DNA from: Escherichia phage 04086
Sequence record: OR842557
DNA length: 64,000 bases
Reading direction: 5' to 3' (one strand)
Of this stretch, positions 49,240 through 57,138 are shown piece by piece. The notes below the pieces were generated by a model. It had not been told where the DNA came from. It worked only from the letters and a program-made list of their open reading frames with translations, and did not search any database. A program made the position numbers and the translations under genes. Position 1 is the stretch's first letter, and each line of letters opens with the position of its first letter.

Positions 49240-49794
49240 ATGAAACTTTTAAAATATTTGAGTTGGGTTCTGTTGGTTCCACTGGATTTTATCTCTATGG
49301 TTCTGGCTGTTATCCTTGCGCCTTTTGTAGTTCCTTTCCACAATAAAAAGACCGGTAAATTGCCTTATGGCTTTGATTGGATGATGACATACGATAATCC
49401 AATTGACGGTGACAAAGGTCACATTAAACGTTGGGCTAAAATCAGGAAAATGCCAGGTGGTGTTTATCTCCAGAGAGTAGCTTGGCTATGGCGAAATAAA
49501 GCTTATAACTTTGCTTACCATAAACTCGGTCGTGATTGTAGCTCAGAATTCCATTATCGTGGTAATCCTGACGTTGAATCCGGTTCTCCTGATAAAGCTC
49601 ATCACGGGTGGTTATGGATGTGGAATGACGACGCCTGGGGTGTATTTGCTTCAGTTCCATATCTTAAGGTTGGTGGGATTACCTTTTACCTTCGCGTGTA
49701 CTGTGGTTGGAAGCTTAAGAGCCTTTTGTCTCGTAAAATCCCTAAGGCCATGTTAGCCTTCCATGTAAACCCGTTCCGGTTCTACAAGAACTGA
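49240..49794 (+). CDS. Hypothetical membrane protein
   Basis: ORF track 49219..49794 begins at a TTG inside the terminator; ATG at 49240 preferred; N-terminal transmembrane segment. Confidence 0.5.
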   Translation: MKLLKYLSWVLLVPLDFISMVLAVILAPFVVPFHNKKTGKLPYGFDWMMTYDNPIDGDKGHIKRWAKIRKMPGGVYLQRVAWLWRNKAYNFAYHKLGRDCSSEFHYRGNPDVESGSPDKAHHGWLWMWNDDAWGVFASVPYLKVGGITFYLRVYCGWKLKSLLSRKIPKAMLAFHVNPFRFYKN

Positions 49795-49799
49795 TTCTA

Positions 49800-49827
49800 G
49801 GCCCTTCCGAAAGGTTGGGCCTTTTTT
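49800..49827 (+). terminator. Intrinsic terminator (GGCCC-ttccgaaaggtt-GGGCC + T6), near-identical to 5116-5143
   Basis: Same ~32 nt cassette including downstream ttttttgttt. Confidence 0.7.
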
Positions 49828-49851
49828 GTTTCTAAAAAGTTTAAAAAAGAT

Positions 49852-49880
49852 GTTTACTCTTTCGTAGAACATGATACTAT
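49852..49880 (+). promoter_or_regulatory. Early promoter cassette (GTTTAC-N17-TACTATAGACCTATCAAAAC)
   Basis: gtttactctttcgtagaacatgatactatagacc upstream of ORF 49916. Confidence 0.55.
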
Positions 49881-49915
49881 AGACCTATCAAAACAACAGT
49901 GTGAAGGAGAGTAAA

Positions 49916-50179
49916 ATGGATAATTATGGTGAAGTGTTTAATTTCTTTATGAAATGTGTTCCGGAAGAATTTGGTGCTACAGTTAACGATATTAAAGTTA
50001 TCGGTCCTGAACACCCAGTGTATGAAACCTATGCAGTAATGGGTAATGAAGATGGACAGTGGTATACAATTAAAGTTGTGATTAATATGTTCTCAGCTGA
50101 AGGCTACGCCAAATCGTCTACCAAAGTTTACCATGATAACGATTTTGATGCGGAAGATTATTTCAATAATATGAAATAA
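49916..50179 (+). CDS. Hypothetical protein
   Basis: ORF track 49901 (GTG); ATG at 49916 after RBS gaaggagagtaaaATG; 87 aa. Confidence 0.5.
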   Translation: MDNYGEVFNFFMKCVPEEFGATVNDIKVIGPEHPVYETYAVMGNEDGQWYTIKVVINMFSAEGYAKSSTKVYHDNDFDAEDYFNNMK

Positions 50180-50182
50180 AAT

Positions 50183-50220
50183 GTTTACATGGGCTCATGA
50201 TTAAGATATTATGAGCCCAT
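50183..50220 (+). promoter_or_regulatory. Early promoter stem-loop (GTTTAC then -10 inside hairpin ATGGGCTCAT / ATGAGCCCAT)
   Basis: gtttacatgggctcatgattaagatattatgagcccat upstream of ORF 50238. Confidence 0.5.
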
Positions 50221-50237
50221 AATTTGAGGAGAACATA

Positions 50238-54344: not shown

Positions 54345-54363
54345 GTTTACTGAGGAAAATATT

Positions 54364-55323
54364 ATGATGTTAGTTATTGGTTCTCGTGCACTGCACCAAG
54401 CTGGTTTGATTGAAAGTAAGTATATCGAAAATTCTGATTGGGATTTCATTGCCGACCAAGGCTCATGGAACCACTTTAAAGCACGTATGTTCGGTGCTCA
54501 TGTACACGTTGACAATCCTGATGTTCAGGCTTTCAAATGTATGCATAATGGTAAAGAAACCTATTTCGAAGCTTATATCGTCCGGGCCCTGACTAATGTA
54601 CGAGAAATTACCGGTGAGCTCCAAGATGAAGACTACACCTCAAGCTATCGTCTCCTGAAATATGCTGAAACCCATATTAAAAAGGACCGTCTTACAGGTT
54701 TCTATTGGGCAACGCCTGATATCTGTCTGGCTATCAAAACCTCTCATCGTTTCCTGAAGAATAATCCATTCTTCCTGAAAACTATGTCCCACATCAAATA
54801 CCTTCGTAATAAAGGTATCACCCTGAATGAAGAACTCCAGGAAATTATGCTGCAACGTCAAAAAGAAACGTTGAGCTATTCCCATCCTAAATTGGATGTA
54901 AACAAATCATCGTTCTTTAATGATACCATTTATACCCTAGACCATGACTCTATTCATGAAGCAGTGGCATTGGCAGGGCGCCCTGCATATACCTTTTATA
55001 TGAAGGAAGGTTCTGAAGTCATGACCTCTCGTGAGAAGTTCGAGGCTTTGCCTGAAGCTATTAAACTGGCCGGTGTGTATGAAGAAACTTGTGTCCTGGC
55101 CCTAGAACGTTCACAGGTTCCTAATGACTTCAATATTTCACCATCATTAAGTTTCTATATGGCTCTTGAGAAAGTGTGTACCTCAATCACTTCAGGTTGG
55201 TTCCGCGAGTACGCCTGGGAAAACTACCAAGCTGTGGTTAATATGTATAAGGCTCTAGGTGAAAACGACTACATCAAGCGTTTCCAAGATAACCATCATT
55301 TAATTCGTCCTTTCGAAAAATAA
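54364..55323 (+). CDS. Hypothetical protein, possible nucleotidyltransferase-fold N-terminus
   Basis: ORF track 54286 (TTG); ATG at 54364 after RBS gaggaaaatattATG; N-terminal LVIGSRAL...SDWDF loosely fits the GS...DxD motif; 319 aa. Confidence 0.5.
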   Translation: MMLVIGSRALHQAGLIESKYIENSDWDFIADQGSWNHFKARMFGAHVHVDNPDVQAFKCMHNGKETYFEAYIVRALTNVREITGELQDEDYTSSYRLLKYAETHIKKDRLTGFYWATPDICLAIKTSHRFLKNNPFFLKTMSHIKYLRNKGITLNEELQEIMLQRQKETLSYSHPKLDVNKSSFFNDTIYTLDHDSIHEAVALAGRPAYTFYMKEGSEVMTSREKFEALPEAIKLAGVYEETCVLALERSQVPNDFNISPSLSFYMALEKVCTSITSGWFREYAWENYQAVVNMYKALGENDYIKRFQDNHHLIRPFEK

Positions 55324-55335
55324 TTGCACAAAACA

Positions 55336-55364
55336 GTGTACAAGGTCTATAGGTGTGATACTAT
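55336..55364 (+). promoter_or_regulatory. Early promoter cassette (GTGTAC-N17-TACTATAGACCTATCAAAAC)
   Basis: Near copy of the cassette at 46235 (caaggtctatagg..gatactatagacctatcaaaac). Confidence 0.5.
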
Positions 55365-55401
55365 AGACCTATCAAAACAACAGAGTGAAATGGAGAATAA
55401 A

Positions 55402-55614
55402 ATGAAACTTTCTAACCAAGCAATCAACATGTTAAACGAAGTTCGTGCAGCTGGTGCTAAATGCCTGATGGTTAACACTCGTGACGGTGACCTTCGTCAA
55501 GCATTTGGTGAATTGAAATCTGCTGACCTGGTTAAATGTTCAGTTGGTATTGGTAACGCACTTCGTGTATCCTTATCTCCTAAAGGTAAAATGTACTTTT
55601 TCAACAAAAAGTAA
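55402..55614 (+). CDS. Hypothetical small protein
   Basis: ORF track 55324 overlaps the promoter; ATG at 55402 after RBS ggagaataaaATG; 70 aa. Confidence 0.45.
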   Translation: MKLSNQAINMLNEVRAAGAKCLMVNTRDGDLRQAFGELKSADLVKCSVGIGNALRVSLSPKGKMYFFNKK

Positions 55615-55628
55615 GTGAGGAAAATATT

Positions 55629-56318
55629 ATGAACGGTCCGAAAACTTTTAATTCTCAAGCTCGTGCAGTCGGTGGTTTTGCTCAAGATATCAGTAATGAT
55701 ATGATTAAAAATGAGCCTATGTTCTTTAATTGCGATGCTTATTTTGCTCATAAACACGGTGGTCCTATTACTCGTAGCTTTATTGAAAACCTGCCTGAAG
55801 ATTGGCAATGTGGCCCTGATATTGTATTTGATTCCCGTGTACACATGTTAATGCCTGGCTGGTACCCTGCTATCCCAGGTTATCACCATGATGACGTACC
55901 GCGCCCGGATATTCCAGTTGGCCAACACTTTATTACTGCAGGGCAACCTGATTATGATAATCCTCGATACCATTCTGAACATATTCTTGGTCTTGTTAAC
56001 GCTGGTGTGTGTCCTACCCATTTTGCAACCGGAACTGCACAGTTCAGTCAGATTCCTGAAGGCGAACTTATCTATCGCCAGTGGCATAAAGAAGTTCTGG
56101 AAAAAATTGAGTCCAATGAATTAACCAAGTGGGATGCTCCTGACCGCACGTTGCTCCAGTTTGATTGGCAGACATGGCATACAGGTTCTCGTGCAGTAAG
56201 TAATGGGTGGCGCTGGTTTGGTCGTGTGTCTCGTAATACAGACCGTGTTAAAAAGATTACAAATGAAATCCGCGTTAATGCTCAAGTATATCTGGAATTC
56301 CCTATGGAGGGCTGGTAA
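55629..56318 (+). CDS. Hypothetical His/Asp-rich protein
   Basis: 229 aa; RBS gaggaaaatattATG; clustered His and Asp (YHHDD, YHSEH) suggest a metal site; no confident family. Confidence 0.5.
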   Translation: MNGPKTFNSQARAVGGFAQDISNDMIKNEPMFFNCDAYFAHKHGGPITRSFIENLPEDWQCGPDIVFDSRVHMLMPGWYPAIPGYHHDDVPRPDIPVGQHFITAGQPDYDNPRYHSEHILGLVNAGVCPTHFATGTAQFSQIPEGELIYRQWHKEVLEKIESNELTKWDAPDRTLLQFDWQTWHTGSRAVSNGWRWFGRVSRNTDRVKKITNEIRVNAQVYLEFPMEGW

Positions 56319-56905
56319 TGGCCCTTTATGAACCTGGTTGTATGGGTATTGATACAAACTTCATCCGTCGGTCGGAAAATGCTGGAATTATTATCCCAAG
56401 TGGTGAGACTATGATTATTAAAAAGTCCTGGCGAAATATTGATGATGGTGATGAAGGAATTTCAGCCAGTACAATAGATTGGTCAGGTTGTACTGCCGAA
56501 ATGAAACAGCTTTTAATTGAGGAATATAAAATGGGCTATATCGTAAATGGCTGGCAAGCGGAACCACATAAAGAACAGACTCCAGACCCATTGATTTGTT
56601 ATAGCAAAAAATACGGCTTCCGTGCATGGAGTGATGAATACGACAAATTGGTGAGTTCTAGATTCTATGTTTGGATGGGTATATTATTTTTCCCACTCCT
56701 AGGGTTTTTCCTGACAACAGATAATGACCTGCCTATTTGTGTATTCGCTTCAGCGATGTCTGCTGCTATCTTAGGTCTTATCGCATCATTTTTATGGACA
56801 TCGGTTATCGAAGTACCTTTTCGTATTTCTAAAGTTAAAAAGGTATATGATGATATCACTAAGAAAAATACATTAAACTCTTTTATTAAGGAATGCCGTA
56901 AATGA
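56318..56905 (+). CDS. Membrane protein with C-terminal FIKECRK tail
   Basis: 195 aa; two transmembrane helices near the C-terminus; tail NTLNSFIKECRK parallels 51885..52238. Confidence 0.5.
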   Translation: MALYEPGCMGIDTNFIRRSENAGIIIPSGETMIIKKSWRNIDDGDEGISASTIDWSGCTAEMKQLLIEEYKMGYIVNGWQAEPHKEQTPDPLICYSKKYGFRAWSDEYDKLVSSRFYVWMGILFFPLLGFFLTTDNDLPICVFASAMSAAILGLIASFLWTSVIEVPFRISKVKKVYDDITKKNTLNSFIKECRK

Positions 56906-57138
56906 GCATTGCAATTTATATTAAATCTGAGTCATGTGATTCTTATCTGTATTCCTATGATACCGGAACATCAGAAGAGAAAATCAAAGAAGATTTAGAA
57001 AGCGATATGGATATGTTCTGTCCTATTGGTGACTATATGCTTCAAGTGTCTGATAATGAAAGTCCATCATCAGAAAATAGACTTCAAATTATTATGCAAG
57101 ATATTTTTAAACAATCATGGGAACGAGACGATGGGTAA
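56902..57138 (+). CDS. Hypothetical acidic protein
   Basis: 78 aa ORF with coupled start. Confidence 0.4.
   Translation: MSIAIYIKSESCDSYLYSYDTGTSEEKIKEDLESDMDMFCPIGDYMLQVSDNESPSSENRLQIIMQDIFKQSWERDDG

Follow-up and report, generated by a model that had tools for sequence, protein, structure and literature searches.

The 64,000-nt stretch of Escherichia phage 04086 analysed here (record OR842557; hereafter the window) holds at 49240-57138 a dense run of small open reading frames (ORFs), which an earlier note made from the sequence alone had described as a hyperplastic accessory region. What these ORFs are, whether they belong together and what they might do for the phage are the questions addressed below. 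The ORFs are named g1 to g19 from left to right (our own labels), and g0 designates the internal-protein-like gene upstream of them. With a probability of about 0.8, the run represents the ordinary nudE/e-to-tRNA hyperplastic region of Dhakavirus, an early mosaic of independent modules that includes two predicted enzymes, g15 and g17.

Gene content and T-even affiliation

The best database match of the region was phage UGJNEcP3 (OV876907; Straboviridae, Tevenvirinae, Dhakavirus), with 97.2% identity over 100% of the length, and at least 80% of the region was covered in 42 GenBank phage records. These matches place the window in a JS98-like T-even coliphage. The equivalent stretch of the JS98 record (EF469154) reads orf136...e.8...e.6...e.2...orf118-nudE-e, downstream of the tRNA cluster, and the T4 map, read from the opposite end, runs e, nudE, e.2-e.8, rnaC, rnaD, tRNAs. 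The earlier note had placed the run between the tRNAs and nudE; nudE does adjoin it directly, but the tRNAs (47915-48071) are separated from it by rnaC/rnaD homologues and the internal-protein-like gene. An Rfam scan of 47500-57600 returned two tRNAs and nothing else.

Listing the ORFs and examining their starts gave 19 plus-strand ORFs followed by nudE, in keeping with the "about twenty small ORFs in coupled strings" announced beforehand. They measured 65-319 aa (median 96), covered approximately 7374 of 7899 nt (~93%) and formed six overlapping start/stop junctions (g5/g6, -8; g6/g7, -4; g11/g12, -7; g17/g18, -1; g18/g19, -4; g19/nudE, -8); judging from this last junction, nudE is translationally coupled to g19. 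Against JS98, the ratio of nonsynonymous to synonymous substitution rates (dN/dS) lay between 0.00 and 0.42 in all 19 ORFs, with similar values in Gaprivervirus and Mosigvirus where homologues exist, and g13 showed no amino-acid change although its proportion of synonymous differences (pS) was 0.22. These ratios indicate genes rather than chance frames, and by this measure the 19 ORFs are real genes under purifying selection throughout.

Besides NUDIX for nudE, the only Pfam matches in the region were DUF7338 (g1) and DUF7277 with DUF7275 (g15). The claim that almost no families would be recognisable thus held for Pfam, with three DUFs only, but failed for PHROG, where all 19 ORFs fell into families (E 1e-10 to 1e-149); their label was "unknown function" throughout, g18 alone bearing a bare "membrane protein". 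Hydropathy placed transmembrane segments in g1, g6 and g18 only. NCBIfam and single-sequence PDB searches with g1, g3, g5 and g13 gave nothing usable. Searches of the literature on the DUF names, the T4 e.x genes and phage 2-oxoglutarate (2OG) oxygenases in anti-defence found nothing specific, and no experimental literature on the region's genes was found. The note's statement that functions could not be assigned has been improved upon for g15 and g17, for which structure prediction gave a fold, and it stands for the other ORFs.

Synteny with T4 e.2-e.8, a check proposed in the earlier note, identified the region as the counterpart of the T4 hyperplastic region. Far from all being conserved T4 orthologues with known functions, just four to five of the 19 ORFs had T4 counterparts, none with a known function, and the T4 protein comparison gave no counterpart for 14 of them. 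Full-length orthologues at the same relative position were e.8 (g2) and e.6 (g4) only, with e.3, e.2 and e.5 matched partially: residues 32-94 of g18 aligned to T4 e.2 (41% over 63 aa), and the match of g5 to T4 e.5 was confined to 15 residues at the C-terminus. No gene of the region was more widely conserved than g4 (e.6), with 63-100% identity across all T-evens compared. A guess, from length and coiled-coil, that e.6 is PspA/ESCRT-III-like was rejected: profiles of 5 and 22 sequences gave noise against PDB sequences, the PspA Pfam domain occurred in no homologue, and Pfam returned just sub-threshold coiled-coil matches.

In the six frames of the window, the motif F[IV]x[ED][CS][RK] occurred only three times (51845, 52215, 56882), and g5, g6 and g18 each carry it in their last 15 residues. 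T4 e.3, e.4 and e.5 end in it too, as do the homologues in Mosigvirus MM02 and Gaprivervirus EAWsc9; its positions in the T4 sequence compared are 4502, 4987, 5337 and 5716. On this distribution, the motif is a C-terminal tag specific to the region. Between T4 e.2 and nudE, an unannotated gap (~4440-4502, minus strand of the T4 sequence compared) encodes in another frame ...NNFITECRKLK-stop, the g18-type tag; because this tag is encoded in the adjacent gap, T4 e.2 (102 aa) may derive from a gene of 165-195 aa by frameshift or truncation.

Regulatory cassettes and plasticity of the region

The motif T[TG][TG]AC[ACT]-N16-18-TAYWAT was searched on both strands of the window, with dinucleotide shuffles as the control. 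This T4-type early promoter motif was found ten times on the plus strand and never on the minus strand (shuffles: mean 1.2, max 5), and it agreed with the consensus published for the promoters of the T4/PST early promoter and stem-loop (PeSL) cassettes, TTTACW-N17-TAYWAT (PMC4122927). All ten sites lay in intergenic gaps, except the one at 54049, which reaches across a stop codon; five were inside the region, upstream of g2, g3, g4, g14 and g16 (Table 1). Strong hairpins followed by T runs were present after g0 (49198-49220), g1 (49798-49826) and g4 (~51315-51337). The hairpin after g1 is a 93% copy of the one at 48452/48661, and the consensus of this 29-nt terminator reads TAG(C/G)CCCTTCCGAAAGGTTGGG(G/C)CTTTTT. 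Another exact copy of its core was noticed at 5118-5135 of the window, far from the region, an indication that the cassette is reused elsewhere in the genome.

The promoter cassettes and terminators proposed at module boundaries were therefore recovered, as were the repeated ribosome-binding-site contexts: TAAGGAA followed by 9-10 nt and ATG occurred four times in the paralogue array g7-g11, GAGGA(A/G)AATATTATG preceded g5, g15 and g17 (family D8), and a 45-nt 5' untranslated region (5'UTR) cassette preceded g2 and g16, with 87% identity between the copies (family D5). The array itself is bound by 9-10 nt intergenic spacers of the TAAGGAA type, and its members end in W-x-S-S-(x0-2)-C; the family had three copies in Mosigvirus, ~5 in the Klebsiella phage and none in T4.

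Plasticity was assessed by tblastn of the 19 proteins against seven loci. Dhakavirus UGJNEcP3, WG01, LHE83 and JS98 (orf118-orf136) carried the same genes in the same order at 90-97% nucleotide identity, and differences between isolates were local. In JS98 and MN04, g6 was replaced by a 52-54% identical allele, g8 was ~80-82% identical, and a g0-like ORF was inserted between g1 and e.8, just after the equivalent hairpin; g10 was 80% identical in JS98 and 99% in MN04, g19 ~82% in all relatives, and MN04 had an extra 168-nt ORF ahead of g15. The 80% identical JS98 homologue of g10, the fourth paralogue (~5699-5911 of the JS98 sequence compared), is unannotated in the GenBank record. Between genera, Gaprivervirus EAWsc9 lacked g2, g3, g10, g14 and g16, and Mosigvirus MM02 lacked g1, g2, g5, g10-g13 and g16. 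The Klebsiella phage retained only e.6, the paralogues, g15, g17 and nudE, and T4 retained e.8, e.6, e.3, e.2 and nudE. The g1 gene was found in Dhakavirus and Gaprivervirus and was absent from T4, MM02 and Klebsiella phage HMGUkp2. The overlap between g17 stop and g18 start was also present in Mosigvirus, despite a differing g18 N-terminus. Variation between isolates, as the note had expected, was thus strong between genera, but within Dhakavirus the region was mostly syntenic; on these comparisons "hyperplastic" is apt from genus to genus and only mildly so between isolates.

The 29-nt hairpin flanks g0 and g1 together in phage 04086 but g1 alone in JS98 and MN04, where the g0-like ORF stands on the other side, a pattern predicted by the PeSL cassette-shuffling model (PMC2839356, PMC4122927). 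From three or four such genome comparisons, we infer that recombination would take place at the cassettes.

Part of the region was more stable. The sub-block of g15, g17, a g18-like gene, g19 and nudE kept its order in Mosigvirus and Gaprivervirus, and an Aeromonas jumbo T4-like phage retained together two paralogues, the nucleotidyltransferase (NTase) gene corresponding to g15, four small ORFs, the oxygenase gene corresponding to g17, and e.6. Identity of g17 was 81% in an Aeromonas phage and ranged from 78 to 87% among Mosigvirus and Klebsiella phages; g15 and e.6 were likewise widely kept, and several genes of the region were as conserved across T4-like phages as core genes. This distribution points to an old accessory "quasi-core" lost by T4. 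The kept order does not show that the genes work together, because g17 travels alone elsewhere and the promoters of g14-g15 and g16-nudE are separate.

Predicted enzymes and competing explanations

Matches to g15 numbered 2032 (clusters at 90% identity), from T4-like phages of enterobacteria, Aeromonas, Pseudomonas and Acinetobacter and from marine samples. An AlphaFold2 model was built from 29 sequences, with a predicted local distance difference test (pLDDT) score of 89.9. Its nearest solved structures were the MenT1, MenT3 and MenT4 toxins, with antibiotic nucleotidyltransferases scoring almost as well; the fold comparison also named TM1012 and LnuA, and Foldseek E-values were weak (0.008-0.01) at probabilities of 0.99-1.00. 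In the model, G6-S7 follow strand 1 (residues 2-5), D25-x-D27 lie at strand 2 (26-31) and E69 is on a later core strand (64-73). These invariant residues supply the Pol-beta motif hG[GS]...[DE]h[DE]h and, on the core beta-sheet of an NTase alpha/beta fold, the third carboxylate; the GS-to-D spacing is 17 residues, above the classical 9-13. As these residues occupy the Pol-beta signature positions, the N-terminal domain is assigned to the NTases, and the model predicts with good confidence that it is an active nucleotidyltransferase.

The C-terminal domain of g15 (DUF7275), the stronger scoring of the two, comprises ~200 aa and is helical, with many invariant His, Arg, Lys and Glu residues; it had no structural match, and a guess that it is HD-like found no support. 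Even with a threshold of E<=1, the Pfam model AbiEii/DUF1814 was matched by none of the 29 family members, which hit DUF7277 and DUF7275 only; the C-terminal motifs III and IV are specific to DUF1814 (PMC7450476). Because its fold scores alike against tRNA-extending toxins and antibiotic nucleotidyltransferases, it does not reveal the substrate of g15. Most likely, g15 would transfer a nucleoside monophosphate to an RNA 3' end or to a small molecule.

For g17, Pfam and NCBIfam gave no match with the protein itself, 27 close members or 10 distant members, and a 38-sequence profile found nothing among PDB sequences. Its structure model (pLDDT 88.3) adopts the double-stranded beta-helix fold of 2OG-Fe(II) oxygenases, and 38 aligned members, 33-55% identical, all had H86-x-D88, H184, R195 and R199. 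By their positions in this alignment, H86-x-D88 and H184 are the predicted iron triad, and the downstream Arg would take the usual 2OG-binding position. Distant homologues gave no bridge from g17 to a curated family of oxygenases, the 10 distant or long members being without Pfam match and the wider profile blank in PDB sequences. As modelled, g17 would most likely hydroxylate a conserved cellular or phage substrate as an Fe(II)/2OG-dependent oxygenase.

Identity among the 120 best database matches of g17 was 66-91%, and an exhaustive profile search yielded 728 clusters at 50% identity. Relatives at 53-61% identity occurred in genomes of Bacteroidota, Saccharibacteria and Verrucomicrobiota, and others at 27-43% in Proteobacteria, a Mycobacterium metagenome-assembled genome (MAG), Dehalococcoidia and a Methanosarcinales MAG; at least one relative was in a prophage-like setting. 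On these identities, its cross-phylum conservation is unusually high for a phage accessory protein. Homologues 53-71% identical were also seen in genomes or contigs apparently from Bacteroidota, Saccharibacteria and Verrucomicrobiota (at 6001-6693 in one of the sequences compared), and one homologue was at the edge of a prophage-like gene string by bacterial housekeeping genes. Neighbour clustering of 15 loci found no conserved partner gene for g17, the remaining clusters being antisense shadows, and g17 is therefore a stand-alone mobile gene.

Database labels for both proteins already existed. One UniRef homologue of g17 carried "phytanoyl-CoA dioxygenase family" and the EAWsc9 GenBank record "phytanoyl-CoA dioxygenase"; this label and the "nucleotidyltransferase" of the EAWsc9 record (g15) agree with the fold results, which are therefore confirmations rather than discoveries. 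Other EAWsc9 labels on tiny ORFs ("malate synthase", "transposase", "antitoxin", "holin", "ubiquitinyl hydrolase") look like unfiltered weak matches and were not used.

Taken as the Dhakavirus hyperplastic region, the locus offers small unassigned ORFs of varying content between conserved genes, with stem-loops and promoters at ORF boundaries; its gene reality, architecture, promoter-consensus match, synteny, folds and catalytic motifs are all observed. Its 19 non-structural genes, all in one direction, would be independently inherited modules rather than one system. Transcription would start at the predicted sigma-70/T4-type early promoters and give the predicted units g1, g2, g3, g4, g5-g13, g14-g15 and g16-g19-nudE, and within each unit translation would be coupled through overlapping or closely spaced stop/start junctions. 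The module boundaries would carry reusable terminator, promoter and 5'UTR cassettes, and insertions or swaps in relatives would fall at some of these boundaries. The contents are three small membrane proteins (g1, g6, g18), the acidic mini-protein family g7-g11, the T4-shared coiled-coil e.6, several proteins of less than 110 aa resembling nothing characterised, and the two predicted enzymes. Early expression and enzymatic activity would be expected of such genes, and some may, by analogy with what is generally known of T-even accessory genes, act in host takeover or counter-defence.

Several results weigh against this account. The promoters and terminators of the region are predicted elements, known as consensus matches alone; the g5-g13 string has no recognisable promoter of its own, which makes the operon boundaries provisional; and a generic sigma-70 scan was not enriched (31 found, 33.9 expected from shuffles), so that only the T4-type motif stands out. 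Nothing ties any gene of the region to a defence system: PADLOC gave no match for the 10 ORFs tested (at least 96 aa), weak evidence in that its catalogue holds defence and not anti-defence proteins.

That the small ORFs are in many cases chance frames in AT-rich spacer is scarcely credible: nine of the 19 are shorter than 90 aa and without a Pfam family, but comparison with one to three relatives put dN/dS well below 1 for every ORF, all belong to PHROG families, each has either a Shine-Dalgarno sequence upstream or a start overlapping the preceding stop, and it is the opposite-strand ORFs that are shadows. A bolder account of the enzymes, in which g15 is a MenT-like NTase used by lytic T4-like phages on RNA 3' ends or a nucleotide signal and g17 founds an unclassified 2OG-oxygenase family, lacking a Pfam model and moving among phages of many phyla, either or both providing a new takeover or counter-defence activity and g15...nudE forming a possible module that modifies nucleotides or RNA ends, is unlikely. 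We regard as quite improbable a single pathway in which g15, g17, g18, g19 and NudE modify nucleotides or RNA ends, for example repairing or masking a tRNA or nucleotide cofactor against host defences. The gene order kept in three T-even genera, the overlapping junctions that couple g16-g19-nudE, the union of three nucleotide-related chemistries in one block and the nearby tRNA cluster would suit such a pathway, as would the Aeromonas phage NTase gene, which starts ~3.6 kb downstream of an Rnl1 RNA ligase gene. Yet neither g15 nor a Nudix gene accompanied g17 in 14 of 15 loci from diverse phages, prophages and bacteria, T4 keeps nudE and e.2 without g15 or g17, the two promoters of the block are separate, and Aeromonas phages have other ORFs and e.6 between and after its genes.

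Very doubtful, too, is a phage toxin-antitoxin pair of the MenAT/AbiE type, in which the NTase g15 would extend tRNA 3' ends and block translation and the small upstream protein g14 would neutralise it. It draws on the MenT toxins being nearest in structure to g15, on a small ORF always lying directly upstream of g15, on the promoter-like site that g14-g15 has to itself and on a gene order like that of MenAT systems, where the antitoxin gene precedes the toxin gene (PMC7450476). However, antibiotic nucleotidyltransferases score nearly as high, the g15 family lacks AbiEii/DUF1814 matches, and a lytic phage needs the host translation apparatus. Nor is the upstream ORF conserved: g14 was kept in Dhakavirus and Mosigvirus only, with unrelated small ORFs at that spot in the other genera (Gaprivervirus, Klebsiella and Aeromonas phages).

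The hyperplastic region, then, is already known both as a sequence, from dozens of deposited Dhakavirus genomes, and as a concept, from 2010-2014. Its practical value is a shortlist of widely conserved, tractable unknowns, namely the g15 NTase, the g17 oxygenase, e.6 and the g7-g11 mini-proteins. Most of them are absent from the model phage T4, which may explain why they were never studied.

Flanking features and comparison with known systems

Table 1. Coordinates and properties of genes and predicted regulatory elements in and around 49240-57138 of the window.
Feature	Position	Strand	Properties
Hairpin terminator after g0	49198..49220	+	AAAGCCCC-AGAT-GGGGCTTT, then T run; left boundary of region
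g1	49240..49794	+	184 aa; DUF7338/phrog_2143; N-terminal transmembrane segment; dN/dS 0.01
Terminator and early-promoter cassette, PeSL-like	49798..49880	+	29-nt hairpin TAGGCCCTTCCGAAAGGTTGGGCCTTTTT (49798-49826); promoter TTTACT-N16-TACTAT (49853-49880)
g2	49916..50179	+	87 aa; T4 e.8 orthologue, 82% identity; phrog_2678
T4-type early promoter upstream of g3	50184..50212	+	TTTACA-N17-TATTAT, within hairpin
g3	50238..50636	+	132 aa; phrog_8232, function label unknown
T4-type early promoter upstream of g4	50642..50670	+	TTTACA-N17-TATAAT, 11/12 match to sigma-70 consensus
g4	50714..51307	+	197 aa; T4 e.6 orthologue, 74% identity; predicted coiled-coil
g5	51356..51892	+	178 aa; phrog_8788; shares with T4 e.5 (same position) only the C-terminal FIAECREY motif
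g6	51885..52238	+	117 aa; two transmembrane segments; T4 e.3-like, 23% identity; C-terminal FIKECKS
g7-g11	52235-52525, 52535-52816, 52826-53023, 53033-53245, 53256-53480	+	65-96 aa; tandem acidic paralogues, phrog_899/phrog_4882
g12	53474..53701	+	75 aa; phrog_7065; basic, pI 10.0; start overlaps g11 stop
g13	53732..54061	+	109 aa; phrog_9796; His/Cys-rich
Early-promoter-like site upstream of g14-g15	54049..54077	+	TGTACA-N17-TACTAT, straddles g13 stop
g14	54105..54344	+	79 aa; phrog_3723; directly upstream of g15 nucleotidyltransferase gene
g15	54364..55323	+	319 aa; DUF7277 + DUF7275; predicted Pol-beta-type nucleotidyltransferase fold
Early promoter and leader cassette	55337..55400	+	TGTACA-N16-TACTAT (55337-55364) within hairpin; overlaps start of 45-nt 5'UTR cassette (55356-55400)
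g16	55402..55614	+	70 aa; phrog_6001; basic, pI 9.9; Dhakavirus only among genomes compared
g17	55629..56318	+	229 aa; phrog_1843; predicted 2OG-Fe(II)-oxygenase-like fold
g18	56318..56905	+	195 aa; soluble N-domain, two transmembrane segments, C-terminal FIKECRK; PHROG label "membrane protein"
g19	56902..57138	+	78 aa; phrog_2900; acidic, pI 4.1; overlaps g18 (ATGA) and nudE
nudE	57131..57580	+	149 aa; Nudix hydrolase, 59% identity to T4 NudE; right boundary

To the left of the region, g0 (48731-49195, 154 aa, phrog_2280) has an N-terminus, MKTYNEFLTE, resembling the capsid-targeting MKTYQEFIAE of T4 IpII/IpIII, and probably encodes an injected internal head protein; the injected proteins Ip1-3 of T4 inhibit GmrSD-type restriction enzymes (PMC12373910). 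A 26% identical g0 relative is found on the other side of g1 in JS98. The window has at 48432-48846 a perfect 206-nt tandem duplication (48432-48637 = 48641-48846) joined by NNN at 48638-48640, which yields a truncated second copy of the g0 start; UGJNEcP3 has one copy, and an artefact of scaffold joining or assembly most likely accounts for the duplication. Between tRNA-Arg and g0, 48134-48485 is 92% identical to the T4 segment with the stable RNAs rnaD and rnaC (species 2 and 1) and matched no Rfam family. The tRNA at 47915-47991 (anticodon CAT) was called tRNA-Met by ARAGORN, and the EAWsc9 record has a tRNA-Ile2 (CAT, lysidine-dependent) at the equivalent position. JS98 and MN04 possess a third tRNA (Asn) between the two tRNAs.

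To the right, phage 04086 possesses an HNH + NUMOD3 homing-endonuclease gene (57594-58346) between nudE and the lysozyme gene e, with a 29-nt overlap with the e start; no HNH gene was present at this position in UGJNEcP3, JS98, EAWsc9 or MM02. In 58318-59276, denV directly follows e, as in EAWsc9, and JS98 and UGJNEcP3 have ipIII and other ORFs between the two.

Compared with known enzymes, g15 shares with the MenT/AbiEii (DUF1814) toxins and the ANT/Lnu enzymes a minimal Pol-beta core, GS...DxD...E, followed by a helical domain; unlike MenT/AbiEii, it falls outside their sequence family, has no conserved antitoxin partner and is carried by lytic T4-like phages. With oxygenases of the PhyH, EasH and prolyl-hydroxylase type, g17 shares the double-stranded beta-helix, the HxD...H triad and the downstream invariant Arg, and it differs from the PhyH type in being compact and stand-alone, at ~225 aa, outside every Pfam and NCBIfam family.

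The region as a whole resembles the T4 nudE(e.1)-e.2...e.8 region in its position between lysozyme/nudE and rnaC/rnaD/tRNAs, its gene order and its orientation. Orthology holds for e.8, e.6 and nudE, g6 is e.3-like, and the g18 N-domain matches e.2. T4 holds 7 ORFs in ~3 kb there, whereas phage 04086 holds 19 in 7.9 kb. Missing from T4 are g1, g3, the five paralogues g7-g11, g12-g14, the NTase gene, g16, the oxygenase gene and g19; missing from phage 04086 are e.7 and any full-length e.5 or e.4. T4-type hyperplastic regions and PeSL cassettes have been described by Arbiol et al. 2010 (PMC2839356) and Comeau et al. 2014 (PMC4122927). As in the PeSL regions, variable small ORFs lie here between conserved blocks, and stem-loops and early promoters mark ORF boundaries. 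Insertions or replacements in relatives may fall at the cassettes: the g0/g1 rearrangement against JS98 and MN04 is bounded by copies of one 29-nt hairpin. Unlike the PeSL type, some promoters of phage 04086 start with TGTACA, and in several cases the hairpin does not stand ahead of the promoter but overlaps it.

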